IMG/VR virus record: IMGVR_UViG_3300027734_000039
DNA from: a virus
DNA: 64,000 bases
Reading direction: 5' to 3' (one strand)
In this document: positions 750-14,558 of the stretch, one piece after another
Layout of the letters: each line of letters starts with the position of its first letter
Numbering within the stretch: position 1 is the first letter of the stretch
Notes under the pieces: model-generated
Database searches by the model: none
Told to the model about the DNA's origin: nothing
What the model saw: only the letters and a program-made list of their open reading frames with translations
Program-made: the position numbers and the translations under genes

Positions 750-1493
750 ATGGAACACGTTAAGAGACTAACAAGAAAAGAAAAACGTATTCTTAGGCAA
801 AATAACGAGAAGGTAGATAATCAAGAAAAATTAAATTTTAAACTCAAAAATGTAGAACCTTTAACGCAAAACCAAAAGCTATCTTTTGAAGCATATCATA
901 ATGGTAAAAATTTGATGCTTCATGGAATCGCTGGTACTGGTAAAAGTTTTATTTCTATGTATTTGGGATTGAATCAAATACTTGGTGAAAATAGTCAGTA
1001 TAAAAAACTTGTTATTGTTAGAAGTGTTGTTCCAACTAGAGATATGGGATTCCTTCCAGGTAACTCTAAAGAAAAGGCAAAAGTGTATGAAGCACCCTAC
1101 TACGCAATCTGTACAGAGCTCTTTGGTCGCTCGGATTCTTACGAGTATCTTAAATCCAGGAATGTGGTTGAATTTATCTCCACATCTTTCATACGCGGCA
1201 TTACTCTTAATGATTGTATCATTGTGGTGGATGAAATTGCCAACATGACATTACACGAGCTAGACTCGGTAATTACTCGCGTTGGTAAAAATTGTAGAAT
1301 TATTTTCTCTGGGGATTTCCGTCAATCAGACTTCACCAAAGAACATGAAAAAAATGGGTTGATTGATTTTATGCGAATTATTGAACGTATGAAGTCCTTT
1401 ACCTTTATTGATTTTAATGAACATGATATTGTCCGAAGCTCCATGGTGAAAGACTATATTATTCAAAAGGACAAATTGAGAATTGTCGCGTAA
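750..1493 (+). CDS. phoH: PhoH-like ATPase
   Basis: Walker A GIAGTGKS, MGFLPG, FIRGITL, DEIAN, GDFRQSD and DIVRS motifs. Confidence 0.95.
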   Translation: MEHVKRLTRKEKRILRQNNEKVDNQEKLNFKLKNVEPLTQNQKLSFEAYHNGKNLMLHGIAGTGKSFISMYLGLNQILGENSQYKKLVIVRSVVPTRDMGFLPGNSKEKAKVYEAPYYAICTELFGRSDSYEYLKSRNVVEFISTSFIRGITLNDCIIVVDEIANMTLHELDSVITRVGKNCRIIFSGDFRQSDFTKEHEKNGLIDFMRIIERMKSFTFIDFNEHDIVRSSMVKDYIIQKDKLRIVA

Positions 1494-2148
1494 AACATTT
1501 ATTCATAAGTTCGTTCCAACTGTTGAGCTGGCCACTGAAAATATCGGTGGCCAGCGTTATTACGTTTTGCCTGATGGCTTAACAAAGCTAAAGTCCGTCA
1601 CAACTATTCTTGGCGAGCGTACTGATAAAACTGCTTTATTAGAATGGAGAGCAAGGGTTGGCGAAGCTGAAGCTCAAAAGATATCCGTGCAGGCTGCTCG
1701 TCGTGGGACAGCTATTCATTCTATTGCTGAACGATATATTTTGAATGAAGAAAAGTATTACAGCGATAAAGAGATGCCCATTAACATAGAATCTTTTAAA
1801 CCTATTAAAGAGATTTTAGATGAACATGTTAATACTGTTCTTGGCGTTGAGATACCCCTTTATTCAAAAGCTCTTGGTTGCGCTGGTAGAACCGATCTAG
1901 TTGCTGAATATGATGGCGTTGTATCTATTATCGACTTTAAAACTTCAAAGAGAATGAAAAAAGCTGAATGGATCGAAAACTACTTTATACAAGCTACTTG
2001 CTATGCTATGATGTTTGAATGGATTTATAAAATTGCAGTTCCTCAAATCGTTATCATCATAACAGTTGACGACGAAAAAACGCCCCAGGTATTTAAGCTG
2101 GAGCGTTCTCAGTATGTTAATCGTGTGTTGGAAATTTTTAGAACTTAA
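1483..2148 (+). CDS. PD-(D/E)XK (Cas4/RecB-like) exonuclease
   Basis: SVTTIL, RGTAIH, AGRTD, IIDFKTS and YFIQATCY motifs; canonical phoH neighbour. Confidence 0.9.
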   Translation: MSRKTFIHKFVPTVELATENIGGQRYYVLPDGLTKLKSVTTILGERTDKTALLEWRARVGEAEAQKISVQAARRGTAIHSIAERYILNEEKYYSDKEMPINIESFKPIKEILDEHVNTVLGVEIPLYSKALGCAGRTDLVAEYDGVVSIIDFKTSKRMKKAEWIENYFIQATCYAMMFEWIYKIAVPQIVIIITVDDEKTPQVFKLERSQYVNRVLEIFRT

Positions 2149-4006
2149 AGTTTAATCCTACCATAGCAGAAACACCTTTATAACCATTGCCGCCATAATC
2201 GCCCCCTAACGATACAAAGGCAGAGGTAGTTTCATTTATTTTCTTATCATACTTTACACGAACTTGACCAACTGTTTTGAAATCTTTAGATTGAGTAACT
2301 CTAGTTTCAACAGAAAAATCTTGGTCAAGTTGATAACGCACACCTGCATATGGACGAACTTCTGTTCTATCTTTCTTTTCAGGGAGAGTAGATAACAAAG
2401 GAGAACCAAATTCTTTTGATGAATATATATCGCTATAGTTTAACGTCGCGCCGAATAAAGGTCTAAACCCGAAATAGTCTTTTCCGGAATAAACAGTAAT
2501 ATCCGTATATGCGGTATTTTGACTTACCTTATTTGAATTGCTTAAATTGAAACCAGTGAGGTTTACTGCTGAGTTATAATTTGTATTACTATAACCAACA
2601 GAAGTTTTTACCAAAGCAAGATCTTGTTTAGTTAACCAATAAGCAGTTCCGGAACCAGTTTTGAATAATGAATTTGAATTATTATATACATAAGATTCTA
2701 CTTCTTCATAAGCACCAGCAATACCATAAGTGTTTTTACCGATAGTATTTTGATAACCGAAGCTTAAACCAGATGATCTTAAACCACCATTTATTCTAGT
2801 AAATCCTAAAATTGGCTGTGCCCACTGACCGTCTTTGATAGATAAAGCGTCGACGATAAATGGATTAAAGTTTCTATAATCTAAAGAATTTTTCAAAGCA
2901 ACAGCTGAAGCAGTTTTGTTTGCTGAAGTTGAATCACCAAACTGATAAGCAGTTCCAGTTTGTGTTGTTGTAGTTGCAGGATTGTTTGGATCAGCAACGG
3001 TTGTGGTTGTATTGTTACTCCATGTCTGAATCACCTTCGGTGTTGTAACCGTTGTGACTGTATATGGCGTAGCAGTTACAGGAGTTGTTGTCTGAGTTAC
3101 ATTAAACTTAGATCCTGTATTCGTGCTAGATGTTGTAACCAACGTTGGTGCTGCTGTTGGTGTCCCTAAAGTCGTTGTCGAAGTAACAGTTGGTGTTGTT
3201 GGTGTTGTGCTTACAACTGTTGGGTTCGATGGAGCTGGTGTAGGATCAACCGTTGGCATGTTTGGATTGTTAGGAGCAACAGCACCGAACGTCTGACCGT
3301 TCTTAGTTACAGATCCAAGACCATCGTTCACATACAGAACTGGCGAAAGAGCAGTATCACCCTGATTGAATGAAGCGAAACCAAGACGATACGTTCCAGC
3401 ATCTACAGTTTCGTAGTTGACGATCTGCCAACCAGTTGAACCGTATGAACCAGTCGAATAGTTACCTGTTCCTGGATTTGTAGCACCGAGCAGAATGTAT
3501 TGTGTAAGAACGTTATTGATCTTACCAAGAGCAGCTGCGTTGCCTGTGTTCACGAATGTTGTGATAGAACCGTCATTGAACGGAACGTAGTCAGTCGATG
3601 TGTAAACCCAATACATCGAGAACTTAGTAGCAGCTGCAAGTGGGAAATCTTTATAGACCCATGCTGCGTTGGTAATGTTACCACCACCTTGTGGATTTTG
3701 TGCAGCGATTTCACCAGAAAGAGCAGATACAGAAGCGGCACTCATACCGAGCGCATTTGTCATATTGGTATATGTTGCTGTTGGATTAGTTGGTGTGAGA
3801 CCAACCATCGTCGATCCCGTGTATGGGCTGATTGCCCATGCATTCATGCCAGCTTGAATTGTTTGTGTGCCAGTCTTTGTAGCTGTCCCAGCAGGACCAT
3901 TTGTCCATCCACTGGCGCTTAGTGAGTAATCTTGTGAAAACGCTACCGATGTAAATGCAAATAGGGCGATTGTCGCCGCTAGAATCTTTTTCATTTTTGG
4001 CTCCAT
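2138..4006 (-). CDS. Autotransporter-like outer-membrane protein
   Basis: Signal peptide (MKKILAATIALFAFTSVAFS), beta-rich N-domain, Pro/Thr-rich linker, C-terminal amphipathic beta-strands ending VGLNFKF. Confidence 0.7.
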   Translation of the reverse strand: MEPKMKKILAATIALFAFTSVAFSQDYSLSASGWTNGPAGTATKTGTQTIQAGMNAWAISPYTGSTMVGLTPTNPTATYTNMTNALGMSAASVSALSGEIAAQNPQGGGNITNAAWVYKDFPLAAATKFSMYWVYTSTDYVPFNDGSITTFVNTGNAAALGKINNVLTQYILLGATNPGTGNYSTGSYGSTGWQIVNYETVDAGTYRLGFASFNQGDTALSPVLYVNDGLGSVTKNGQTFGAVAPNNPNMPTVDPTPAPSNPTVVSTTPTTPTVTSTTTLGTPTAAPTLVTTSSTNTGSKFNVTQTTTPVTATPYTVTTVTTPKVIQTWSNNTTTTVADPNNPATTTTQTGTAYQFGDSTSANKTASAVALKNSLDYRNFNPFIVDALSIKDGQWAQPILGFTRINGGLRSSGLSFGYQNTIGKNTYGIAGAYEEVESYVYNNSNSLFKTGSGTAYWLTKQDLALVKTSVGYSNTNYNSAVNLTGFNLSNSNKVSQNTAYTDITVYSGKDYFGFRPLFGATLNYSDIYSSKEFGSPLLSTLPEKKDRTEVRPYAGVRYQLDQDFSVETRVTQSKDFKTVGQVRVKYDKKINETTSAFVSLGGDYGGNGYKGVSAMVGLNFKF

Positions 4007-4062
4007 TATGGTTTGATAATTTCATCAATCATCAGACACATAACGAAACAACATCTCTACTC

Positions 4063-4074
4063 TATTTATAAATA
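4063..4074. promoter_or_regulatory. Bidirectional T4-type late promoter (TATAAATA on both strands)
   Basis: Palindrome TATTTATAAATA between divergent genes. Confidence 0.65.
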
Positions 4075-4095
4075 ATAAAAAAGGTGGAGGTTTTT

Positions 4096-4377
4096 ATGGA
4101 TACTTGGTTTAAATTAATCGCCGATGTCGGCTTTCCTATCGCTGCTGCATGCGCAATGGGATACTTTATTTTCTTAACGATTAAATTCATCCTTGCTGGT
4201 GTTATGAGTAGCGTCCAAGGACTCAGTGGAATCATTACTGCTCTCGATAACAGAGTTAAGACGATGAACCACGACGTCATAAGAATCGACACTCTCGTCT
4301 CCAACGCCATGGGTGTTAAACCTGACATTGACCGTATCGCCCGTGCGGACGGCAAAAACGATGCAAGAAGGGACTGA
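4096..4377 (+). CDS. Small membrane protein (one TM plus coiled coil)
   Basis: GGAGG then ATG at 4096; DVGFPIAAA TM segment; paralogous to next gene. Confidence 0.75.
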   Translation: MDTWFKLIADVGFPIAAACAMGYFIFLTIKFILAGVMSSVQGLSGIITALDNRVKTMNHDVIRIDTLVSNAMGVKPDIDRIARADGKNDARRD

Positions 4378-4379
4378 CC

Positions 4380-4733
4380 ATGGGTGATATTGCTCAATTA
4401 ATTTCAAAGTATGGGTTTCCTATTGTCGCTGCGGCAGGTATGGGTTATATGATTTTTTATGTGTGGACTTGGGCTACACAGGAAGTTAAGCCAGTACTCT
4501 CAGAGGCTAATAAAGTTTTGATTGCGCTTATTGATCGTATTCGCATGTTAGATAATGACCTTATTCGTTTAAATCAAAAAGTTAATATTGTTCTTCAACT
4601 ACGTAAAATGGAACATGACGAGTTAACAAAGCAAGCTCATCAGTTTTTGATCGAAGAAAATAACAGGTCCGTATCTGTACCAGAGCAAAAGACCGAGGAA
4701 AAGCCAGACGAATCCAATAAGAAAGTAAAGTAA
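4380..4733 (+). CDS. Small membrane protein (one TM plus coiled coil)
   Basis: KYGFPIVAA TM segment and LIDRIRMLDNDLIRL, similar to LDNRVKTMNHDVIRI in previous gene. Confidence 0.75.
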   Translation: MGDIAQLISKYGFPIVAAAGMGYMIFYVWTWATQEVKPVLSEANKVLIALIDRIRMLDNDLIRLNQKVNIVLQLRKMEHDELTKQAHQFLIEENNRSVSVPEQKTEEKPDESNKKVK

Positions 4734-4735
4734 TA

Positions 4736-5707
4736 TTACTTCCTTAGATTGTCTATGAACATTTTCGCTGTTTTCTTCCAATCGTAATTTTCCTTAATAA
4801 AGTTAGAGCAGTCAGACGATTTAAGTTTGACTGCTTTTTCGCAAGCAACTTTAAGATCCCAATTCATAGCCCCAACTTTTTTATTGAGGATATCGATTGG
4901 ACCAGTTACTGGATAAGCAGCAACTGGTGTTCCGCAAGCAAGAGCTTCAATAATAACTATACCGAATGTATCTGCCTTTGATGGGAATACAAACACATCA
5001 GCATTTTGATAAACAAATGCTAAATTATTACCTGTTAATTTGCCCATAAAATTTACATACGGATATTTTTTTCTTAATCTTTCAAGTTCTGGACCATCGC
5101 CAACAACAACCTTTGTTGATTTAATATCTAAATCAAGAAAAGCTTCGATGTTTTTTTCTACCGAAACTCTACCAACATAAAGAAGCATTGGTATCTGCCC
5201 CTTTAATCTTTTCGGCTTCGGTGGTTTAAATAGATTAGTATCTACACCACGAGTCCATTTAACAAGATTAACAAACCCACGTCTTTCAAGATCTAATTTC
5301 AAACTATCAGTCGTCACCATCACAGCTGAACTTTTAGAATGAAACCACTTCATATATTTGTATGTAAACTTAGCTGGAAACTTAATCATTGCTTCTAAAA
5401 ATTCAGGAAACTTTGTGTGATAGCTCGTTGTAAAGTTTCTTTTGTTTTTTACACACCAGTTTCTTACAGCTAACCCGATCGGTCCTTCTGTAGCGATATG
5501 AATATACTTTGGATTTAGTTTCTTTATCTTTTCATCTATGCCAAAAGGTATGGCTAAACTAATCTCATTATATAATGGACATGGAAATGATTTGAAATCG
5601 TTCGGTGTGATGAAAATAACATCATCACACTCTTCTTGTATTTTCTTTAAGGTCATAACAACGCCGTTAACTTGTGGTTCCCAAGCGTCAGTTGCGATAA
5701 GAATCAT
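4736..5707 (-). CDS. GT4 glycosyltransferase, Agt-like diacylglycerol glycosyltransferase
   Basis: TDAWEPQVNGVV, HIATEGPIG, FTTSYHTKFPE, WTRGVD, VGRVSVEKN and DTFGIVIIEA motifs. Confidence 0.85.
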   Translation of the reverse strand: MILIATDAWEPQVNGVVMTLKKIQEECDDVIFITPNDFKSFPCPLYNEISLAIPFGIDEKIKKLNPKYIHIATEGPIGLAVRNWCVKNKRNFTTSYHTKFPEFLEAMIKFPAKFTYKYMKWFHSKSSAVMVTTDSLKLDLERRGFVNLVKWTRGVDTNLFKPPKPKRLKGQIPMLLYVGRVSVEKNIEAFLDLDIKSTKVVVGDGPELERLRKKYPYVNFMGKLTGNNLAFVYQNADVFVFPSKADTFGIVIIEALACGTPVAAYPVTGPIDILNKKVGAMNWDLKVACEKAVKLKSSDCSNFIKENYDWKKTAKMFIDNLRK

Positions 5708-5835
5708 TTTACAGCTTGTGTTTTCTTATTTTTCAAAGACTTCTTAAGAATTTTAAACCAAACTTTCTTTTCTTTATCCTTATTTTTTTCAAGGATAGCT
5801 TTGTAAAGTTTAGAAACTAACTTATTTACTTTCAT
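5704..5835 (-). CDS. 43-aa Lys-rich peptide (not in ORF track)
   Basis: MKVNKLVSKLYKAILEKNKDKEKKVWFKILKKSLKNKKTQAVK; overlaps upstream stop and downstream start (ATGA). Confidence 0.6.
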   Translation of the reverse strand: MKVNKLVSKLYKAILEKNKDKEKKVWFKILKKSLKNKKTQAVK

Positions 5836-6583
5836 CGTTCCACCTTATTAGTTCGAATTTACCATCATAGTGTTCAACAATAGCAGTACAAGATTCTACC
5901 CAGTCACCACAGTTATAGTATTTAATACCGTTGAAATCGCCAATGTTAGCGTGATGGATATGACCACAAACAACACCGCTAACTTCTTGTGTTTTAGCAA
6001 AAGAAGAAAGGGTCTCTTCATAATTGCCAATAAAGTTTACAGCTTCTTTTACTTTGTACTTAGCCCATGCACTCAATGACCAATATGGCAACCCAAACCA
6101 GTTTCTAACTTTAGTAACAAGAGTGTTAAGCGCCATCGCTACATCATACGCCCAAGAACCTAGATGAGCTAACCACTTTGCATTTCTAATTACAGCATCA
6201 AACTGGTCGCCGTGTATGACAAGTATAGGTTTACCATCAACTGTAATATGAACGAAACGTTCTAATACGTGAATGTTACCAAAGAACTGATCACCAAACG
6301 TTCTTAGTATTTCGTCGTGATTGCCTGACACATATATGATATCAGTACCTTTACGACCTTTTCTTAATATCTTTTGTACAACGTCATTGTGACTTTGTGT
6401 CCAATACATATTTTTTGACATAGCCCAGCAGTCAATAATATCGCCTACCAAATAAAACTTTTCACATTCAAACGTTTTCATAAACTCTAATAGAGCATCA
6501 GCCTGTGACGCTTTTGTCCCAAGGTGAACATCTGATATGAATACAGAACGATACTTATTTACTATTGGTTCTGAAGACGCCAT
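5822..6583 (-). CDS. Metallophosphoesterase, PlcP/LpxH2-like phospholipase C
   Basis: SDVHLG, LVGDIID, HNDVVQKILRKGRKG, GNHDE, HGDQFD, GHIH and GDWVESCTA motifs; adjacent to Agt-like GT4. Confidence 0.85.
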   Translation of the reverse strand: MASSEPIVNKYRSVFISDVHLGTKASQADALLEFMKTFECEKFYLVGDIIDCWAMSKNMYWTQSHNDVVQKILRKGRKGTDIIYVSGNHDEILRTFGDQFFGNIHVLERFVHITVDGKPILVIHGDQFDAVIRNAKWLAHLGSWAYDVAMALNTLVTKVRNWFGLPYWSLSAWAKYKVKEAVNFIGNYEETLSSFAKTQEVSGVVCGHIHHANIGDFNGIKYYNCGDWVESCTAIVEHYDGKFELIRWNDESK

Positions 6584-8618
6584 CCCAATTTTCTCCTGGT
6601 GGGTTTATTTTATATTCTTTTACTCTTTCCATCATCATATCATAATATTCTTTCATTTCACCATCAAATGCATTTTGAAGCGTTTTATAATAATCTTTTA
6701 GCTTATCCCACTTTTGACCTCTATAAAACTTTATAAAGTCCGCATGAGTACGAGAATAAGCAATGTTGATGCTATTCCTATCAACAATCGTGTAAATGTT
6801 AACACCTTCAGTTTTTCCTTTCACAGCAAGACAATCAAGCTCCAAGCATAGATATTCATCTTTAACTAACTCGTAAGTACGTTGACCTATAATCAGTTTT
6901 ACATGATACGGTTTTGATTGACCTTCTAGTCTAGAGGCCAAGTTAACAGAATCACCGAGGCAAGTATAATCGAAACGCTGAGAGCTACCCATATTTCCGA
7001 CAACAACAGAACCAGTATTGATACCAAGACCCATACCGAAAGCAGGAATACCTTCGTTGGCGATTTCAGCATTGAAGCGATCCAAGTCGCCAAGCATTTC
7101 AAGAGCTGTTTTAACTGCATGTTTAGCGTGATCCTTATCGTCTAGTGGTGCGTTCCAAAAAGCCATTTGAGCATCACCAATATATTTATCAAGCGTTCCT
7201 TCATTTTCAAGTATTTTCGCAGTCATCGCTGTCATGTAGCGATTCATAATCTCAGTAAGACCTTGAACGTTAGATCCATAATGCTCACTAATAGTAGTGA
7301 AACCCCTAACATCAGTAAACATAATTGAAAGTTCTCTGGTTTCTCCGCCAAGGCGTAATAACTCCGGATTCTTTTGTAGTTTTTCTACAAGAGCTGGTGA
7401 AAGATAAGTTCCAAACTGCTTTTTAATTTGTTGTTTTAATCTGAATTCACGAGCGAAATTATTAAACGTCAATTGAAAAAATATTGCGATGCAACTAAGT
7501 AATATGTAGCTCGGATCCCACAGCTGCATATAATTTAAAAACATATAATACGAACCGCCGACAATGGAAACGACAAATGTTATCAAAACAGGTATGGTCC
7601 AAAAGACCGAAGTACGAGGTATTAGAATTAGCAATGTGCCTAATAGCAATACTAGCAGCGCTGTCTCTAGTAGCTTACTCTCTGGTAAACGGCTTATAGA
7701 AGTTCCGTCAATTAAAGTTTGAAGTGCTTGACCTTGCACTTCATGTGCCCACTTCTCCCCGATAGGTGTTGCAACTATACCACCAACACCTTCGATGGTC
7801 AATCCTAAGATAACAATTTTCCCTTCGACGGTTTCTTTTGTAATTTCAGTTGCTTCAATCTTGCTGAAGTTGTTGTTCCATCCGAGCCAGATGCGACCGT
7901 TTTTATCTGTAGAGATGGCGGGGAACTGTGGGATGCGGACGGCTTCGACACCCGCTTCACCTGTTTTGATTTGGTAAGAGGGATCGCCAGCAGCTGTTCG
8001 TAAGGTTTCCAATACAAAAGAAGGATACAGTGTATCGCCAATCCGAGCCAACATAGGCATACGACGGACAACGCCATCGCGCTCGGGAGCAACTGCCAAA
8101 AGCCCAACACCATCCGCATTTCCTGCCAATGTTGGTAAAGGAGCCACAGCCCCCCTCCAAGTATACAACCATGGATCAGGAGCATTACCGATACTAGCAA
8201 ACCCTCTGCGAGCAGCATCTGCTGGTCTTGATTGAGATGTAGGAGTTTGAGAAATGACAACGCTACCACCTCCTAAACTTTTTGCGAGCTCTTGGTCGCC
8301 ACCAGCTCTATCTTTTTCAGAAAATAAAATAGGAACTGAAATAACTGCTGCACCTGAATCGCGGAGCGTATCAATCGTTTGAGCAATATCCCTTCGGTCA
8401 AATGGCCATTGACCAAATTTTTGAACTGACTTTTCGCCAAACTCAACGAAAACAACTTCATCCGACTGTTTCTTTTCTAGTGTTCCTATCAGATAGTCAA
8501 AGGTTTTCAGCTGTAGTGTTTCGATAGGACTTGGATTGATAACATACAATGTCAACAGGAGAAAGGCGCTGATAGCAGCTGCCCACGTACTTGTAAGATA
8601 TTTGCCCAGATTTTCCAT
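6555..8618 (-). CDS. CHASE2-domain class III adenylate cyclase
   Basis: N-terminal TM, CHASE2 (GQWPFDR, DGVVRR), 3 TMs, catalytic FTDVRGFT, DKYIGDA, YTCLGDSVNLASRLE. Confidence 0.92.
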   Translation of the reverse strand: MENLGKYLTSTWAAAISAFLLLTLYVINPSPIETLQLKTFDYLIGTLEKKQSDEVVFVEFGEKSVQKFGQWPFDRRDIAQTIDTLRDSGAAVISVPILFSEKDRAGGDQELAKSLGGGSVVISQTPTSQSRPADAARRGFASIGNAPDPWLYTWRGAVAPLPTLAGNADGVGLLAVAPERDGVVRRMPMLARIGDTLYPSFVLETLRTAAGDPSYQIKTGEAGVEAVRIPQFPAISTDKNGRIWLGWNNNFSKIEATEITKETVEGKIVILGLTIEGVGGIVATPIGEKWAHEVQGQALQTLIDGTSISRLPESKLLETALLVLLLGTLLILIPRTSVFWTIPVLITFVVSIVGGSYYMFLNYMQLWDPSYILLSCIAIFFQLTFNNFAREFRLKQQIKKQFGTYLSPALVEKLQKNPELLRLGGETRELSIMFTDVRGFTTISEHYGSNVQGLTEIMNRYMTAMTAKILENEGTLDKYIGDAQMAFWNAPLDDKDHAKHAVKTALEMLGDLDRFNAEIANEGIPAFGMGLGINTGSVVVGNMGSSQRFDYTCLGDSVNLASRLEGQSKPYHVKLIIGQRTYELVKDEYLCLELDCLAVKGKTEGVNIYTIVDRNSINIAYSRTHADFIKFYRGQKWDKLKDYYKTLQNAFDGEMKEYYDMMMERVKEYKINPPGENWDGVFRTNSK

Positions 8619-8620
8619 TT

Positions 8621-8884
8621 TCAGTACTGGTTGATGATATATGGACTATTAGGGCAGCTGCTACCACATACAACGCTAAGGCTAAAAGACTGTGCATTAA
8701 TTCCAGACTGAGTGACTGAAACGCTAATCCCGTCGCCTGAAAGTTGCAAATTAGCAGAATGACCAGAAGCAGACTGAGTAATAATAACATTTTGATTTGC
8801 TCCTTGAATGTTCACGATTGCATTATTAATATTCTGCGAATAAGCAGCAGTAGTCATAAAAAGTAAAGCTAAAAGTGTTTTCAT
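8621..8884 (-). CDS. Small secreted curlin-like protein
   Basis: Signal peptide, N-x-A-x-V/I-x-Q repeats, CxxxC, ends IINQY. Confidence 0.65.
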   Translation of the reverse strand: MKTLLALLFMTTAAYSQNINNAIVNIQGANQNVIITQSASGHSANLQLSGDGISVSVTQSGINAQSFSLSVVCGSSCPNSPYIINQY

Positions 8885-9996
8885 CAGTTACCCTGCTTTA
8901 TATTGATAGTTGTTGTTCCTCTACTATTTACAATTTGAGAAATAGTAATGTTTTCTTGGGTAATGTTTACGGTTAAACTGTTATTAGTAGATACCGTTAC
9001 TTCTGCATATGCACCACTTACTTCGCGATATAATGTAACATAGTCATTTTCAACGAAATACTTCAATCCAGTTGCAGCATTATACTTAGGCAATAGAGCA
9101 TTATATTCAGTTAATTCGTTACCTAGTAATTGAGAAGATGCTATATCCAAAAGGTTCATAAGGTAATCTGAATCGAGATAATTTCTATCTAACTTATTAT
9201 ACTCTGATAGGTAATTTTTACTTAACTCGGTATATATTAATAGGTCTTTTCCAAGTAGATCTTCATCAAGAAAATTGTAAGCTTTAGTTACTATATTTTC
9301 TTGAACTGCCACCTGTTTCGGTGGGGTAACAATAATTAGGTTATTGATTTGATCTAAATTGAGATTAAGGATAGCTGACTTCGGTGTAGTCATTCTACTA
9401 CCAACTGCAACTGATTCGAATGGCTTTGTTAACCAAACCGTACCCATATCAGTCGTTACGGATATAGATCCTGTGATACAATCGCGTTCAACATTTCTCC
9501 ACCCAACAGGGCAAGAAGGTAAAAGAATAACAGTACTGCGACCGATCTCGTCAACAGTTCCAGAAAAGTCAGTTCCTCTGACACCGATTGTAGCTGTGGG
9601 CGTCTCAACAACAACCTGTTGCGGATCAGATTTAGCGATTTGACCTGATGCATATTTAATAGTTCCCAAAGCCATCTTGATTCCAAGCTTACCAGTTTTC
9701 TTAGAATCATCGTAAACAAAGTTATCAATTACAAGTTTAGAATGCTCGGTTATTTGAACCTTAGTATCATCCTGAAATGTAATGCCAGCTTTACCATTAG
9801 CAGTTGTGATTGTATCTCTCATCTCAATGCCACTTTGAATGGCGCTTGAAATCACAGCTGTATTACGTTTAATTTCAGTTGGACCTGTTTGCTCTGTTAC
9901 TTTACCAACGTCAGCTTTAGTTGTGGTTGGATCTAATAGTAAGAGTGTTGCCAGAACCAGTGATTGTAGAAATGACCTTTGAATCAACGCCGCCAC
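8884..9996 (-). CDS. FecR-domain protein
   Basis: Signal peptide; DTITT, ITFQDDT...ITEHSKLVID, TPTATIGVRGTDF. Confidence 0.85.
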   Translation of the reverse strand: MAALIQRSFLQSLVLATLLLLDPTTTKADVGKVTEQTGPTEIKRNTAVISSAIQSGIEMRDTITTANGKAGITFQDDTKVQITEHSKLVIDNFVYDDSKKTGKLGIKMALGTIKYASGQIAKSDPQQVVVETPTATIGVRGTDFSGTVDEIGRSTVILLPSCPVGWRNVERDCITGSISVTTDMGTVWLTKPFESVAVGSRMTTPKSAILNLNLDQINNLIIVTPPKQVAVQENIVTKAYNFLDEDLLGKDLLIYTELSKNYLSEYNKLDRNYLDSDYLMNLLDIASSQLLGNELTEYNALLPKYNAATGLKYFVENDYVTLYREVSGAYAEVTVSTNNSLTVNITQENITISQIVNSRGTTTINIKQGN

Positions 9997-10600
9997 CTTG
10001 CTTAATATCTACCGTATTAGTAGCGCCCAGGATATTCACGTCTGCTTCATGTCCATTTATACCTGCTACACCAGTTTGTTTAATTGCTACTTCATTACCG
10101 CCGCCGCCATCGATAAGCACAGTGCTTTTTGCACCAGCAACTGATGATGAATCGTTCTGAATGTTTACTGTGTTATTATCTGTATTGATTGTAACTGTTG
10201 AAAGTGTAAAACCTTCGGCATTTTGAGTAACAGTATTGTTATCGCCTGTAATTGTATTAACTAGAGACGAACCTGAACAAGATCCGCCAGAACCACAGGA
10301 AATACCTACTGCGTTGTTATCGCCAGTTACCAAAGAGTTTATAGTAACGCCATCACCAAAAACAACTACGTTGGCAACGTTAGTGTTACCTATTTGGTCG
10401 ATTGTTACGATATTGTTTTGTCCGTTAAAAGTCGCTTTATTCGTTGCATTACCAATAGAATTAGTGTTACCAGTTTGGGTCATACTGATCGTAGAACCAT
10501 CGCCTATCTGATCAACGTATACACTATTTCCTGCTGCGTTTGCATAATTTACCATAACCAAGAATGACAATAACGCCATCATTCTTGTTAATAGTTGCAT
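9917..10600 (-). CDS. Curlin-repeat (CsgA/CsgB-like) secreted protein
   Basis: Signal peptide followed by repeated N-x-V-x-I-x-Q-x-G-x-x-N units. Confidence 0.8.
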   Translation of the reverse strand: MQLLTRMMALLSFLVMVNYANAAGNSVYVDQIGDGSTISMTQTGNTNSIGNATNKATFNGQNNIVTIDQIGNTNVANVVVFGDGVTINSLVTGDNNAVGISCGSGGSCSGSSLVNTITGDNNTVTQNAEGFTLSTVTINTDNNTVNIQNDSSSVAGAKSTVLIDGGGGNEVAIKQTGVAGINGHEADVNILGATNTVDIKQGGGVDSKVISTITGSGNTLTIRSNHN

Positions 10601-11425
10601 TTATTTTCCCTTCTTAAAGCTCCATAAGTTTTTCTTAGCGCCTTCTTTAATCATCTCTGTAACTGCCGCCTCAATCGCGATTCTAACGGCATACGTTGTC
10701 GGTTCGTTGACAGAAGAACCAGCTTCGAACTCTACTGATTTAGTTCCAGCATCAACAAACTTAAATACGTTAGCATTAACACCTGTACTGAATACGGTTT
10801 TAGTAACGCCAGTAGATAAAAGTATCTCACCTGTATTTATAGAAATTAACCTTAACATTATAGTAACTTCGTCTTTTCTATACTCCTGAGTAGCTCCTAC
10901 GCCAAGGAATCTAGCACCGATACCGCCAGTACCGATGTTAGAGTCATACCCGACGATACCACCATCAATCATAATACCAGCAACGATGAGAGGCGTCAAA
11001 GGCTTTGCCTGATCCTTCTCATAAAGCTCTCTCTGTGAACGAATAAGCTGTCTTTCTTTTACAAGGTTTTCAAGAGCAACACGTTCAACGGGCATAAACC
11101 ATTGACCCTTGCCAGCATCCTGTAAAGCTTTAATTAAAAGAACTTCGCCGCCCTGCGTTACTGCAGAACTGAACGAAGCATAGTTTTGCGATGGTTTTCT
11201 TTGGCCAGTTAAGTCAGCAAACTTATAAACAGCAATAGGAACCTTTGGCCCATCTACAGGAGCAAGGTTCGCTAATTCATTAAATCTCTTAGAAGTTTTA
11301 ATTACTTCTGGGGAATCAACTTGCGGCTCTACATGCCTTGCGCTTGTTATTTCTTTACCTGTGCAACTTGCAACAAGTAAGCCAGCAAATATAGCAATCC
11401 ATAATTTTTTTATCGTTTTTACCAT
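10601..11425 (-). CDS. csgG: Curli secretion pore lipoprotein CsgG/HfaB family
   Basis: Lipobox LLVASC; IAVYKFADLTGQRKP, SSAVTQG, VERVALENLVKERQLIRS, GGIVGYDSN. Confidence 0.92.
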   Translation of the reverse strand: MVKTIKKLWIAIFAGLLVASCTGKEITSARHVEPQVDSPEVIKTSKRFNELANLAPVDGPKVPIAVYKFADLTGQRKPSQNYASFSSAVTQGGEVLLIKALQDAGKGQWFMPVERVALENLVKERQLIRSQRELYEKDQAKPLTPLIVAGIMIDGGIVGYDSNIGTGGIGARFLGVGATQEYRKDEVTIMLRLISINTGEILLSTGVTKTVFSTGVNANVFKFVDAGTKSVEFEAGSSVNEPTTYAVRIAIEAAVTEMIKEGAKKNLWSFKKGK

Positions 11426-11856
11426 GCTAAACTCCCATACGGAACTACCACTTCAGTAACGCTACCAGCAGCATCTGTTATTCTTAATGTTATATTAGAA
11501 CCATCAGATGACCAAGCAACGTTATTAGATGCAATATCAAAAGACCCAGAAGTTTTGCCGTCGTCGCTAAAAAGCTGTTCGGCTATCTTCTGGGATAAGG
11601 TCGCATAGACGCGACTTTCTAAATTGTTTAGAAACTTGGCTAGGTTTGTATTTTTAGCATCCGAAGCTGCTTTAGCTGCCTCGGCTTTTTTATCATCTAA
11701 TAACTTTTGTTTTCTTGTTTGTTCTAAATTTTCTATCGTAAGAACATGAGAAGAAAACCCTACGCCGTTAAAAGCAGGACTTCTAAACTGAAATTGAATT
11801 TCATTAGCATATGAAACAGAAGAAAATAAACAAAATAATGCGACTAACTTTTTCAT
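11419..11856 (-). CDS. csgF: Curli assembly protein CsgF family
   Basis: Signal peptide then EIQFQFRSPAFNG; FLNNLESRVYATLS; adjacent to csgG. Confidence 0.88.
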   Translation of the reverse strand: MKKLVALFCLFSSVSYANEIQFQFRSPAFNGVGFSSHVLTIENLEQTRKQKLLDDKKAEAAKAASDAKNTNLAKFLNNLESRVYATLSQKIAEQLFSDDGKTSGSFDIASNNVAWSSDGSNITLRITDAAGSVTEVVVPYGSLAW

Positions 11857-11878: not shown

Positions 11879-11952
11879 TGGCACCAGTGGAAGGAGTCGA
11901 ACCCTCGCCTAGATTTTTGGAGAATCCCGTGCTACCGTAACACTTCACTGAT
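11879..11952 (-). tRNA. tRNA-Trp(CCA)
   Basis: Cloverleaf, loop CTCCAAA, encoded CCA. Confidence 0.85.
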
Positions 11953-11968
11953 ATATAACTATTTAGGG

Positions 11969-12058
11969 TGGTGGAGAGTGTGAGATTCGAACTCACGGAA
12001 CCTGTTAGGGTTCGAGCATTTAGCAAACGCTTGCCTTAAGCCTCTCGGCCAACTCTCC
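11969..12058 (-). tRNA. tRNA-Ser(GCT)
   Basis: Loop TTGCTAA, long variable arm, CCA. Confidence 0.9.
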
Positions 12059-12062
12059 GTAA

Positions 12063-12147
12063 TGGTGGAAGAGGATGGATTCGAACCAACTCACCGTACA
12101 GAATCGATTTACAGTCGACCGCGACTCTCCAACTTCGCCGCTCTTCC
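12063..12147 (-). tRNA. tRNA-Tyr(GTA)
   Basis: Loop CTGTAAA, CCA. Confidence 0.9.
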
Positions 12148-12153
12148 AATTCT

Positions 12154-12227
12154 TGGTACCATCTACTGGTTACGATCCAGTGCTAAGAGTGCCACAAACT
12201 CTTGTGCTACCATTACACTAAGATGGC
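12154..12227 (-). tRNA. tRNA-His(GTG), no G-1, A73
   Basis: Loop TTGTGGC; G1.U72 pair, A73, T at -1. Confidence 0.88.
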
Positions 12228-12228
12228 A

Positions 12229-12304
12229 TGGTGCTGCCTGAGAGGTTCGAACTCCCGACATCTCGATTACTAATCGAGTGCTCTACCAACTGAGCTAAGG
12301 CAGC
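12229..12304 (-). tRNA. tRNA-Thr(AGT)
   Basis: Stem CTCGA/TCGAG, loop TTAGTAA, canonical D and T arms, CCA. Confidence 0.88.
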
Positions 12305-12309
12305 ATATT

Positions 12310-12386
12310 TGGTGCGCTTGGAGGGAGTCGAACCCCCAAAACTTGGTTTCTAAGACCAATACGTATACCAATTCCGTCACAAGCGC
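12310..12386 (-). tRNA. tRNA-Leu(TAG), short variable loop
   Basis: Loop CTTAGAA, CCA. Confidence 0.85.
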
Positions 12387-12392
12387 ATTTAT

Positions 12393-12467
12393 TGGAGCGG
12401 ACGATGAGATTCGAACTCACGACAACTTGCTTGGCAAGCAAGGACTCTACCACTGAGCTACATCCGC
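12393..12467 (-). tRNA. tRNA-Gly(GCC)
   Basis: Loop TTGCCAA, CCA. Confidence 0.9.
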
Positions 12468-12472
12468 ATTAA

Positions 12473-12547
12473 TGGAGTTGCCTCCCAGAATCGAACTGGG
12501 TTCTCAAGGATTTGCAGTCCCGTATATTACCATCCTACTCAGGCAAC
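12473..12547 (-). tRNA. tRNA-Cys(GCA)
   Basis: Loop CTGCAAA, U73, CCA. Confidence 0.85.
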
Positions 12548-12550
12548 AAT

Positions 12551-12624
12551 TGGCGATCCTGAAGGGACTCAAACCCTCCTTTTCCCGTAGACAGCGGGAA
12601 GCCTTCTCTGACGGCAACAGGATC
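12551..12624 (-). tRNA. tRNA-Asp(GTC)
   Basis: Loop CTGTCTA, G73, CCA; T-loop TTTGAGT. Confidence 0.8.
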
Positions 12625-12626
12625 AG

Positions 12627-12704
12627 AACTCGTGATAGGACTTGAACCTATATGCTCCCGAATACTGCCGTAGACAAGAGAACTTACGCTTAGTTGACAC
12701 GAGT
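12627..12704 (-). ncRNA. tRNA-like element lacking a canonical anticodon loop and CCA
   Basis: Acceptor ACTCGTG/CACGAGT, D-like AACT/AGTT, T arm ATAGG-TTCAAGT-CCTAT; anticodon arm extended. Confidence 0.6.
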
Positions 12705-12710
12705 ATAAAC

Positions 12711-12786
12711 TGGTGCTGTTGGAGAGAATCGAACTCCCGACCTGATGATTACAAATCAACTGTTCTACCAATTGAACTACAACAGC
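12711..12786 (-). tRNA. tRNA-Thr(TGT)
   Basis: Loop TTTGTAA, CCA. Confidence 0.9.
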
Positions 12787-12792
12787 GAATAA

Positions 12793-12880
12793 GTGGGAGC
12801 TAACCTTGGCTCCCGTCGGATCTATTTGTCGCGATCAACCGTTTGAGGGTTCCATGCATAAACGCTGTCTACCCACACCC
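12793..12880 (-). ncRNA. Structured RNA candidate between tRNA-Ala and tRNA-Thr
   Basis: Three helices: CGTTT/AAACG, GTTG-ATC/GAT-CGAC, GGGAGC/GCTCCC. Confidence 0.4.
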
Positions 12881-12884
12881 ATTT

Positions 12885-12960
12885 TGGTGGAGACATGCGG
12901 GATCGAACCGCAGACCTGAAGCTTGCAAAGCTACCGCTCTCCCAACTGAGCTATGTCCCC
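12885..12960 (-). tRNA. tRNA-Ala(TGC)
   Basis: GGGG start, G3.U70, loop TTTGCAA, CCA. Confidence 0.92.
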
Positions 12961-12962
12961 AA

Positions 12963-13045
12963 ATTCATCCGCGTCTTTTATAGTGGCTAAGTTATCGCAG
13001 CCCCACTACTGGTACGCACATCATCAGATCTAGAAACCGATGAAT
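12963..13045 (-). ncRNA. Structured RNA candidate between tRNA-Val and tRNA-Ala
   Basis: Closing ATTCATC/GATGAAT, inner TGCGT/ACGCG and TAGTGG/CCACTA helices. Confidence 0.4.
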
Positions 13046-13060
13046 AGTAATCCAGCGACT

Positions 13061-13135
<75 letters not shown>

Positions 13136-13141
13136 ATATAA

Positions 13142-13220
13142 TGGCTCCCAGTGCCGGAATCGAACCGACCTAACCATTGCTTAACAGGCAAGTCCATGCA
13201 CCATGCTCGGATTTCTGGGA
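13142..13220 (-). tRNA. tRNA-Asn(GTT)
   Basis: Loop CTGTTAA, G73, CCA. Confidence 0.85.
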
Positions 13221-13348
13221 ATAGAATTACTTTCCTCGTCTTTTACCGTTTTGCGGTTTAAATTCTGGAAGTAATTTTTTAAATCTTTGAACTAAATTTG
13301 GCTTAGATTTATCATAACCTGTTTGTTATAATTAACAGTATATAAACT

Positions 13349-13624
13349 TTAGTTACAAACTCGTTCTTGACGAATGCCGTAAGGAGTGCGGCGATCGACG
13401 ATATAGCAATGAGGACGACGAGGATAAACAGGAACATAACGTTCCTGATAAACTACTGGACGTCGCTCAACGTATACTGGACGGGGCTGAGACGCTTCAT
13501 TAGCTACAACTGCACCAGCAGCAGCACCAACAACACCAGCAGCTACAAGTTGCTGTTCGCGTGCTGTACAGCCAGCCAATCCGAGAGCAATAAGTGGAAC
13601 TAATAGAATCTTACGCATTGTCAT
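13349..13624 (-). CDS. Small lipoprotein with glycine-zipper-like segment
   Basis: Lipobox LAGC; AAGVVGAAAGAVV; Pro/Arg/Tyr-rich tail. Confidence 0.75.
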   Translation of the reverse strand: MTMRKILLVPLIALGLAGCTAREQQLVAAGVVGAAAGAVVANEASQPRPVYVERRPVVYQERYVPVYPRRPHCYIVDRRTPYGIRQERVCN

Positions 13625-13632
13625 TCCCCAAA

Positions 13633-14160
13633 TTAGAACTTATAATTTAAGCCAAGCGTGACAACGTTCTCATCGCGATCACGCTTACGGTCAGTGATAT
13701 AACGGTAACGAACATCTGCTTCAATATCGCTTGTGATGTCATAACGGACACCAGCACCAGCAACGTAGATAGGCTCGCGCTTAAGATCAGACCAACGATA
13801 ACCAACGCCAGCAAGAGCATAAGGAACAACAGGAACGAAACCAATCTTATACTGACCGATTACGTTTGTAGTTGCTGTATGTGAACGAAGCTTTGATGAT
13901 TCATTCCAAGCATAATCATAATCAGCTTCTACACGAGCAAACTCTGAAAATTCCCAACCAGCGCGAGCATTAACGCGAAGAGCGTCGTACCAAGGATTGA
14001 TATTTGTTACAGCCTTCGAACCCAAAGAACCGCCAACATAAAATTCAGCCGACTCTTGTGTAGGAGCAGGAGGTGCTGCTGGGGTCTTAGCAGGAATATC
14101 GCTAGCCGAAGCAGCGGTAGCAAAAATCAAACCAACAAATGTTACAACATACTTATTCAT
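13633..14160 (-). CDS. Small outer-membrane beta-barrel (Omp25/RopB-like porin family)
   Basis: Signal peptide then ASDIPAK-PAAPP; FYVGG, PYALAGVGY, GAGVRYDIT, YRY, ends LGLNYKF. Confidence 0.85.
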   Translation of the reverse strand: MNKYVVTFVGLIFATAASASDIPAKTPAAPPAPTQESAEFYVGGSLGSKAVTNINPWYDALRVNARAGWEFSEFARVEADYDYAWNESSKLRSHTATTNVIGQYKIGFVPVVPYALAGVGYRWSDLKREPIYVAGAGVRYDITSDIEADVRYRYITDRKRDRDENVVTLGLNYKF

Positions 14161-14190
14161 ACTTTTTACTCCATTTCAAGTTATACACCT

Positions 14191-14219
14191 ATTATATAGG
14201 TGATAGGTTTAAAAGTCAA
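14191..14219 (-). promoter_or_regulatory. Sigma70-type promoter for the omp gene
   Basis: TTGACT-17 nt-TATAAT. Confidence 0.8.
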
Positions 14220-14220
14220 G

Positions 14221-14310
14221 TGGAGGAAGCGGTGGGATTCGAACCCACGGGAGACTTTCGCCCCCGCTAGTTTTCAAGACTAGAACCTTAAACCACTCGG
14301 TCACACTTCC
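14221..14310 (-). tRNA. tRNA-Ser(TGA)
   Basis: Loop CTTGAAA, long variable arm, CCA. Confidence 0.9.
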
Positions 14311-14316
14311 ATTAAT

Positions 14317-14393
14317 TGGTCGGAGTGGCAAGACTCGAACTTGCGACCTCTGGTACCCAAAACCAGCGCACTACCAGGCTGTGCTACACTCCG
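14317..14393 (-). tRNA. tRNA-Pro(TGG)
   Basis: CGGAGTG start, loop TTTGGGT, CCA. Confidence 0.92.
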
Positions 14394-14404
14394 TTATTCT
14401 TATT

Positions 14405-14480
14405 TGGTGATCTCTGTGGGATTCGAACCCACGACAATTCGATTAAAAGTCGAATGCTCTACCAACTGAGCTAAGAGATC
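14405..14480 (-). tRNA. tRNA-Lys(TTT)
   Basis: Loop CTTTTAA, CCA. Confidence 0.92.
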
Positions 14481-14483
14481 TAA

Positions 14484-14558
14484 TGGTTGGCACAGGTGGT
14501 TACGATCCACCGACCCCTGTCTTATCAGGACAGTGCTCTACCGCTGAGCTATGCGCCA
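14484..14558 (-). tRNA. tRNA-Ile(GAT)
   Basis: Loop CTGATAA, T-loop ATCGTAA, CCA. Confidence 0.88.

Follow-up and report, generated by a model that had tools for sequence, protein, structure and literature searches.

What kind of system is formed by nine consecutive phage genes that join a curli-type export machinery, a FecR-domain protein, a receptor-type adenylate cyclase, and two enzymes resembling those of bacterial lipid remodeling on a single strand? The question is raised by the virus record IMGVR_UViG_3300027734_000039 of the IMG/VR database, of which a stretch of 64,000 nucleotides (nt), termed the window here, was analyzed. PHROG matches to a major head protein, portal, tail sheath, large terminase, and replicative helicase identify the window as DNA of a T4-like myophage, and the nine open reading frames (ORFs) in question follow each other on its minus strand between positions 4736 and 11856. 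A first-pass annotation had regarded them as one trans-envelope device, which is not borne out by the gene order in related loci. The account that we favor, if with only a little more than even confidence, is that two modules are packed into one probable transcript, namely a viral curli-type (type VIII) secretion system (T8SS) equipped with a FecR-CHASE2 pair (6555-11856) and an enzyme pair of the PlcP-Agt type (4736-6583).

Gene Order and Conservation of the Six-Gene Cassette

As judged from Pfam searches, seven of the nine encoded proteins match known families above the curated thresholds, representing CsgF, CsgG, Curlin_rpt, FecR, CHASE2 together with Guanylate_cyc, Metallophos, and glycosyltransferase family 4 (GT4; Glycos_transf_1), while a small curlin-like protein separates FecR from the cyclase and an ORF of 43 amino acids (aa) separates the phosphoesterase from the GT4 enzyme. 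The positions and common strand of the nine ORFs stand as first annotated, and so do their tight junctions, each of which lies between an overlap and a gap of 2 nt: from csgF to the GT4 gene, the values are -7, 0, -71 (for a start at TTG 9987) or -80 (for GTG 9996), -1, +2, -29, -14, and -4 nt. These overlapping junctions make co-transcription of the nine genes likely, and no convincing terminator or promoter was recognized within the operon, the numbers of such sites equaling those of shuffled sequence. However, overlapping junctions are the rule throughout this T4-like window and are therefore weak evidence of functional unity.

Gene order was compared across 112 IMG/VR loci collected with the cyclase and CsgG as queries, on which all proteins of the window were located. 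They contain 86 distinct cyclase loci, 54 of them with at least 5.5 kb of upstream sequence, and in all 54 the genes for CsgF, CsgG, the curlin-repeat protein, and the FecR-domain protein precede the cyclase gene on the same strand. Even FecR relatives of only 32-33% identity still occur in such cassettes, once with a changed gene order. The proposed tie between the csg genes, FecR, and the CHASE2 cyclase is thus confirmed, but the proposed conservation does not extend to the nine genes as a unit, as the phosphoesterase gene stands directly behind the cyclase gene in 4 of 77 loci, is accompanied there by the GT4 gene in 3 of 77, and lies further downstream in 7 loci. The cyclase alone has at least 598 viral matches. 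A profile search of genome contigs with the cyclase alignment gave three matches, all on contigs of metagenome-assembled genomes labeled as Bacteroidota. In two of these (L116 and L117), the cyclase gene has csg and FecR genes next to it, while the third (L115) shows the cyclase only; all three look like binned phage contigs and therefore provide no host or bacterial context.

The nine genes had also been thought to match no characterized system, which is wrong for the six-gene core. Viral T8SS (curli) genes were first noted in phages by Zaragoza-Solas et al. (2020; PMC7029224), and csg genes were then described in the OM43 phage Melnitz, where they were proposed to form a lysis-timing pore (Buchholz et al., 2022; PMC9004378). 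A module of CsgF, CsgG, CsgA/B, FecR, often a second CsgA/B, and an adenylate cyclase was reported from podo- and myo-type pelagiphages, with viral T8SS genes present at all 65 ocean stations examined and expressed in metatranscriptomes, and with an inferred alphaproteobacterial origin (Wittmers et al., 2022; PMC9599517). By its sequence and gene content, the six-gene cassette of the window is a distant relative of this published, functionally unexplained phage module, sharing the gene set and gene order, the lack of CsgC, CsgD, and CsgE, and the location in a variable region of a T4-like genome; the GenBank record of phage HTVC008M shows the same order of genes. It differs from the pelagiphage module in its second curlin-type protein, which is only 87 aa long, and in the PlcP-Agt-like pair attached downstream. 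The histidine kinase gene preceding csgF in the Podoviridae form (PMC9599517) is not found among the scanned neighbors, a tRNA array taking its place. In aquatic phages of the T4-like and podo types, few unexplained gene sets are as widespread as this cassette. Neither the CHASE2 domain nor the bacterial FecR-CHASE2 pairing is mentioned in the three reports (PMC9599517, PMC7029224, PMC9004378), and the new points added here are the CHASE2 sensor domain, the reading of FecR and CHASE2 as partners, a companion pair of small membrane proteins with a GFPI motif, and the attachment of the PlcP-Agt-like genes.

The FecR-Domain Protein and the CHASE2 Cyclase

The cyclase gene (6555-8618) codes for a predicted receptor adenylate cyclase of 687 aa, which consists of an N-terminal hydrophobic segment, a periplasmic CHASE2 domain (PF05226, 135.5 bits, E 3.1e-39), and a class III catalytic domain (Guanylate_cyc, PF00211, 73.1 bits, E 2.8e-20), the two domains being separated by a hydrophobic block at about residues 313-362. 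Its best match of solved structure is CyaB from Pseudomonas aeruginosa (E 2.4e-32), and residue roles were assigned against alignments with CyaB and CyaC. Accordingly, D436 and D482 represent the two metal-binding aspartates, K478 the substrate-binding lysine with T552 as its partner, and N559 and R563 the transition-state residues, all of which are invariant or nearly so in the phage homologs (alignments A1 and A3). The earlier call as a cyclase therefore holds, residue conservation indicating an intact active site of the adenine-specific type. The protein is 44% identical to its counterpart in Melnitz and 42% to that in HTVC008M.

The product of the gene at 8884-9996 is a FecR-domain protein of 367-370 aa (PF04773, E 3.9e-11, 43.7 bits against a cut-off of 24) without any other Pfam domain. 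Its start is probably the TTG at 9987, located behind the sequence AAGGTGG within the 3' end of the preceding curlin gene. About 25 hydrophobic, signal-like residues at its N-terminus are followed by a FecR/PupR-like beta domain from about residue 28, a linker modeled at low confidence, and a C-terminal beta meander of six strands that ends in a conserved NSGG...IxIxQ motif (alignment A2). The N-terminal segment, as judged by eye, resembles a signal peptide, and the protein is thus probably exported. In the AlphaFold model, residues 30-210 reach predicted local distance difference test values of 85-91, and the best fold match of the beta domain is the C-terminal signaling domain of PupR (6ovk; Z 15.0, root mean square deviation 2.6, 135 residues aligned). 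Sequence, alignment, and model agree in the absence of an N-terminal cytoplasmic anti-sigma domain with a membrane span, and no gene for an extracytoplasmic function (ECF) sigma factor or a TonB-dependent transducer is present among the nine genes or in the scanned flanks. The lack of the anti-sigma domain indicates that the phage protein is probably not an iron-type or anti-sigma regulator in the manner of FecR itself. A Foldseek match to an adhesin entry described as a "cell surface anchoring domain" (5ix9, Z 6.8) was discarded for the C-terminus, because it covers residues 24-119.

A different partner is suggested by bacterial gene neighborhoods. Three cyclases encoded on alphaproteobacterial replicons share 28-34% identity with the phage cyclase along its entire length, and in all three replicons checked (Paracoccus pAMI5, Ruegeria THAF33, and Shinella) a gene for a FecR-domain protein directly precedes the CHASE2 cyclase gene, the flanks displayed containing no annotated csg genes. 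In the window, the order is FecR gene, 87-aa gene, and cyclase gene, so that FecR lies upstream of the CHASE2 gene as in the bacterial pairs. In Sinorhizobium meliloti, the gene SMc02177 presumably adjoins cyaD1. SMc02177 carries a FecR domain (PMC5498481), and a LysM-FecR protein is paired with a CHASE2 histidine kinase in Burkholderia (PMC5192318). In the bacterial pairs as in the phage, the gene for an exported FecR-domain protein precedes that for a membrane protein in which a CHASE2 domain on the periplasmic side is combined with an output domain in the cytoplasm. The bacterial pairs differ by their direct adjacency, compared with the interposed 87-aa gene of the window, by the lack of csg genes annotated beside them, and by the extra parts of their FecR-domain proteins, such as LysM or an extended C-terminus, in place of the short beta meander of the phage protein. 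Because such neighbors occur in Alphaproteobacteria without csg genes, we infer that FecR and CHASE2 form a sensor pair.

In one of these replicons, Paracoccus aminophilus pAMI5 (L121, 215-8115), a patatin-like, cyclic-nucleotide-binding phospholipase is encoded at a distance of two genes from the FecR/CHASE2 cyclase pair. This neighborhood hints that cyclases of this kind may control lipid turnover in some bacteria.

The suggestion that an outer-membrane protein may signal to a CHASE2 cyclase has a precedent in NsrA of S. meliloti, which acts with CyaK and CyaD1/CyaD2 (PMC7529298). The NsrA-CyaK/CyaD1/CyaD2-Clr pathway resembles the arrangement considered here in having an outer-membrane protein, inner-membrane CHASE2 cyclases, and a trans-envelope route to cyclic AMP (cAMP), but NsrA is reported as an outer-membrane beta-barrel receptor and not a CsgG protein, the signal is derived from the plant, the output runs via Clr, and no secretion system is involved (PMC7529298, PMC13001267). 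A complex prediction with residues 28-318 containing the CHASE2 domain and residues 27-235 containing the N-terminal domain of the FecR-domain protein scored 0.00 in both runs, which is evidence neither for nor against a contact. As for the receiver of the cAMP signal, a PF00027 search found no cyclic nucleotide-binding domain encoded in any of five related phage genomes (four with a completeness of 90% or more), and the receiver is therefore probably a host protein.

The Curli-Type Export Genes

The first two genes of the cassette encode proteins resembling the outer-membrane components of curli export. CsgF (11419-11856; 145 aa) matches PF10614 over its whole length (E 1.6e-17, 64.4 bits against a cut-off of 25.8). 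Its residues 2-49 align weakly with E. coli CsgF (E 0.097), and the QFQFRSPAF motif directly after the signal peptide marks its N-terminal segment as the type that enters the CsgG barrel. CsgG (10601-11425; 274 aa) is a predicted outer-membrane lipoprotein pore with the lipobox VASC (PF03783, E 1.5e-53, 181.6 bits against a cut-off of 20.8), whose residues 38-271 align with the solved structure of E. coli CsgG (E 1.6e-47).

The third gene (9917-10600) codes for a protein of 227 aa with a signal peptide and four Curlin_rpt stretches (27.7 bits against a cut-off of 20.7), and a curlin gene occupies the same position in all 54 loci with sufficient upstream flank. This protein is a likely fiber subunit. 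The 87-aa exported protein encoded at 8621-8884 had been labeled as small and curlin-like, a label that finds no support from Pfam (9.3 bits, below the threshold) but is backed by hhalign with the family of the 227-aa protein (96%, E 2.8e-9, in an alignment that took in the signal peptides of both). Its gene is detectable in 33 of the 54 complete cassettes. In HTVC008M (L001), a 441-aa protein annotated as hypothetical is encoded between the FecR gene and the cyclase gene (7032-8357) and contains a PA14 domain and five Curlin_rpt stretches; by its domain content, it is a curlin-type protein with an adhesin-like head.

Compared with the CsgBAC-CsgDEFG system of E. coli, the phage genes share a CsgG homologous from end to end, the N-terminal motif of CsgF, and a cargo with curlin repeats. 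They lack CsgE, CsgC, and CsgD, have an altered constriction loop in CsgG (NYASF instead of YPASNF), and add the FecR-domain protein and the cyclase. Scans with Pfam and further family models found no CsgE-like gate among the nine genes.

The Probable Lipid-Remodeling Genes

The tail of the operon begins with a gene for a PlcP-like (LpxH-like) metallophosphoesterase of 253 aa (5822-6583; Pfam Metallophos), which shares 29 nt with the end of the cyclase gene; NCBIfam models for LpxH match the protein below their cut-offs. Across 98% of its length, it has 55% identity with the product of the single LpxH-like gene of S. meliloti, which is located near annotated genes for an acyl-homoserine lactone (AHL) synthase and a LuxR-type protein and which we take to be SMc00171 (PlcP). 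SMc00171 is listed as a phospholipase C of the Pho regulon. The last gene (4736-5707; Pfam GT4/Glycos_transf_1) encodes an Agt/GTcp-like GT4 glycolipid glycosyltransferase of 323 aa, whose motifs GRVSVEKN and FPSKADTFG match GRVAXEKN and FPSXTDTFG of the SAR11 GTcp clade (PMC8231724). Between the two lies a lysine-rich ORF of 43 aa (5704-5835) with a GC content of 23.5% and no family match; its sole detected relative (in L082, 91% identity) also follows directly after the phosphoesterase gene, and the GT4 gene abuts the phosphoesterase gene in L005, L013, and L106, where this ORF is missing.

Bacterial homologs share 51-56% identity with the phosphoesterase and 45-48% with the GT4 enzyme, and in Methylobacterium bullatum and Sphingomonas parapaucimobilis both homologs are encoded adjacently and in the same order. 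A plcP gene followed by agt is the commonest plcP neighborhood in marine bacteria. The assignment of phosphoesterase and GT4 as a lipid-remodeling pair is supported by this likeness to the PlcP-Agt operon of marine and soil bacteria, which likewise consists of a metallophosphoesterase gene followed by a GT4 gene with the GTcp motifs (PMC4796936, PMC8231724). The window pair differs in being encoded by a phage and in the 43-aa ORF inserted between the genes. We therefore regard the tail as a probable phage version of the PlcP-Agt pathway of phosphate-sparing lipid exchange, and no report of PlcP as a phage gene was found in the literature searched. Two other T4-like phage loci (L124/L125, 4303-5735) carry a phosphoesterase gene (64% identical) beside a gene for a GT2 rather than a GT4 enzyme and far from any csg cassette, and in phage Mosig the phosphoesterase gene has an annotated phosphate ABC transporter gene in its vicinity. 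A PhoH-like gene is present in the window itself (750-1493, plus strand), 3 kb from the PlcP-Agt-like pair; this gene and the phosphate-transporter neighbor in Mosig fit a theme of phosphate stress.

Proposed Function and Alternative Explanations

In the two-module account, CsgG and CsgF, which are of outer-membrane-pore types, would serve the two exported curlin-type proteins as likely cargo or fiber material. The FecR-domain protein and the CHASE2 cyclase would act as a sensor pair joined to these secretion genes. The output of cAMP in the infected cell would then depend on envelope conditions or on the progress of curlin export, and the cAMP in turn would act on host receptors. The PlcP-Agt-type enzymes would turn phospholipids into glycolipids and free phosphate, representing an auxiliary metabolic gene pair placed behind the cyclase gene in a few phages; if they are active, membrane lipids join the phosphate sources tapped by phages.

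Several points weigh against this account. Fiber formation, cyclase activity, the contact between FecR and CHASE2, and co-transcription are all predicted from the DNA. Over 59 loci, the identity of the N-terminal domain of FecR tracks that of CsgG more closely (Spearman 0.87) than that of CHASE2 (0.77), correlations that are only indicative because these loci are interrelated. Four loci are mosaics (L013, L029, L030, and L038), in which the half from csgF to FecR is 33-50% identical to the window (45-50% in the domain-level comparison) and the cyclase 70-74% (62-66% in CHASE2 and 87-93% in the cyclase domain), suggesting recombination between the FecR gene and the cyclase gene. FecR and CHASE2 are thus not strictly co-inherited, and FecR may have CsgG as its partner instead. 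The curlin-like character of the FecR C-terminus is weak: the likeness was noted by eye, hhalign gives 29% and 12.5% (P ~1e-3), there is no Pfam match, and residues 298-365 find only generic beta-meander folds (Z 5-7). Finally, L005, L013, L035, L082, and L106 show the same 29-nt overlap of the cyclase gene with the phosphoesterase gene, and the two modules may therefore be functionally linked in this sub-lineage.

A more specific version would have the exported FecR-domain protein replace CsgE as the partner of CsgG in the periplasm and also bind CHASE2. The cassette would then constitute a phage-borne, secretion-coupled second-messenger switch, with curlin export or fiber assembly translated directly into cAMP, while in this sub-lineage the same transcript would also bring about phosphate-sparing lipid renovation. 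Taken as one complete chain, this version is unlikely to be right.

It is likewise doubtful that CsgG and CsgF merely provide an outer-membrane pore, either for the uptake of solutes or cofactors or for gated lysis timing, with curlin-like proteins that do not form fibers (PMC7029224, PMC9004378, PMC9599517). The missing CsgE-like gate, the altered constriction loop, the absence of clumping in Melnitz cultures (PMC9004378), and the small membrane-protein pair with a weakly holin-like N-terminus encoded nearby would agree with such a role. However, a Curlin_rpt protein above the Pfam threshold is encoded beside csgG in all 54 loci, a second curlin-type gene is common, an adhesin-type PA14 domain is present in HTVC008M, and CsgF, the fiber anchor and nucleator in E. 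coli, is always kept. A pore would also leave the FecR-domain protein and the cyclase unexplained.

The opposite emphasis makes the fibers the purpose of the genes, a curlin coat either aggregating hosts ("sibling capture") or shielding them from superinfection, with FecR and the cyclase as unrelated fellow travelers. Curli aggregate other bacteria, aggregation has been proposed for these phages as well (PMC7029224, PMC9599517), and the PA14-curlin protein of HTVC008M would suit such a role. This explanation appears similarly improbable in view of the position of the FecR gene between the two curlin genes, with an overlap of about 70 nt with the first, an arrangement kept in close relatives. 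Linkage in all 54 loci points to a functional connection, and the lack of aggregation observed with Melnitz (PMC9004378) does not favor a coat that collects cells.

Less probable still is the original view that all nine genes form one trans-envelope device, whose cAMP drives lipid remodeling by the phosphoesterase and the GT4 enzyme. Each junction is an overlap or a gap of at most 2 nt, the cyclase-phosphoesterase overlap recurs in the five loci listed above, the phosphoesterase gene lies within the cassette in L055, and on pAMI5 the cyclic-nucleotide-binding phospholipase is encoded two genes from a FecR-CHASE2 pair. On the other hand, 73 of 77 loci do without a phosphoesterase gene directly behind the cyclase gene and 74 of 77 without the phosphoesterase-GT4 pair there; the phosphoesterase gene occurs far from the cassette elsewhere (beside GT2, or near the phosphate transporter in Mosig); tight junctions are general in this genome; and the bacterial PlcP-Agt pair works without a cyclase (PMC4796936).

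The notion that the FecR-domain protein is an iron regulator of the ferric citrate type in a module importing or sensing iron compounds (a reading given in PMC9599517) has its Pfam domain and the fold match to the siderophore-signaling domain of PupR in its favor but is very improbable, as the FecR domain follows at once upon a signal-like start with no cytoplasmic anti-sigma domain, no ECF sigma factor or TonB-dependent transducer is encoded among the nine genes, and bacterial exported FecR-domain proteins of this kind partner CHASE2 sensors, so that the gene is better read as half of a FecR-CHASE2 sensor pair.

Flanking Genes and Genomic Context

The start of csgF lies 22 nt past a tRNA-Trp gene, the last of an array of 16 tRNA genes on the same strand, and the transcript therefore probably begins upstream of this array. 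The tRNA genes were recognized with ARAGORN and Rfam and form two blocks (11879-14558, minus strand), between which a gene for an OmpA-like outer-membrane beta-barrel protein is inserted (13633-14160, minus strand; Pfam OMP_b-brl). A sigma-70-like site with 11 of 12 matches is present at 14219-14191 on the minus strand. A copy of the late-promoter motif TATAAATA inside csgG (10834-10841) was rejected as an internal promoter, since one match per 7 kb is within chance expectation. Within the array, a tRNA-Thr gene with the anticodon AGT adjoins one with TGT.

On the other side of the operon and convergent with it, two tandem genes on the plus strand (4084-4377 and 4380-4733) encode paralogous small membrane proteins of 97 and 117 aa with the GFPI motif, and a match to the same late-promoter motif precedes them (4067-4074, plus strand). 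The two proteins are 33% identical (E 1e-12), phrog_18771 is matched at 4e-31, and each protein is predicted to contain one membrane span and a likely coiled coil, with a weakly holin-like N-terminus. Of 57 distinct cassette loci, 52 contain the pair, the flanks of the other five being cut, and it is also present in HTVC008M and on the binned contig L116. In 13 loci, it lies directly upstream and in the same direction, heading the operon with a median gap of 14 nt, and in 39 it lies downstream and convergent. The pair may belong to the system, or it may indicate where the variable island ends. A minus-strand ORF of 111 aa in the same region (4062-4397) was rejected as a gene, being an antisense reading of the plus-strand gene at 4084-4377.

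No sign of a rhizobial host emerged for the phage: the best matches of the major capsid protein are 62-66% identical and scattered over phages of Stenotrophomonas, Synechococcus, Pelagibacter, and Sinorhizobium, with no close cultured relative among them. Further along the window, an ORF of 622 aa on the minus strand (2138-4006) has no Pfam or PHROG match; relatives of it are located shortly before csgF in L006 and L025, and in L116 one is inserted between the genes for the FecR-domain protein and the cyclase.

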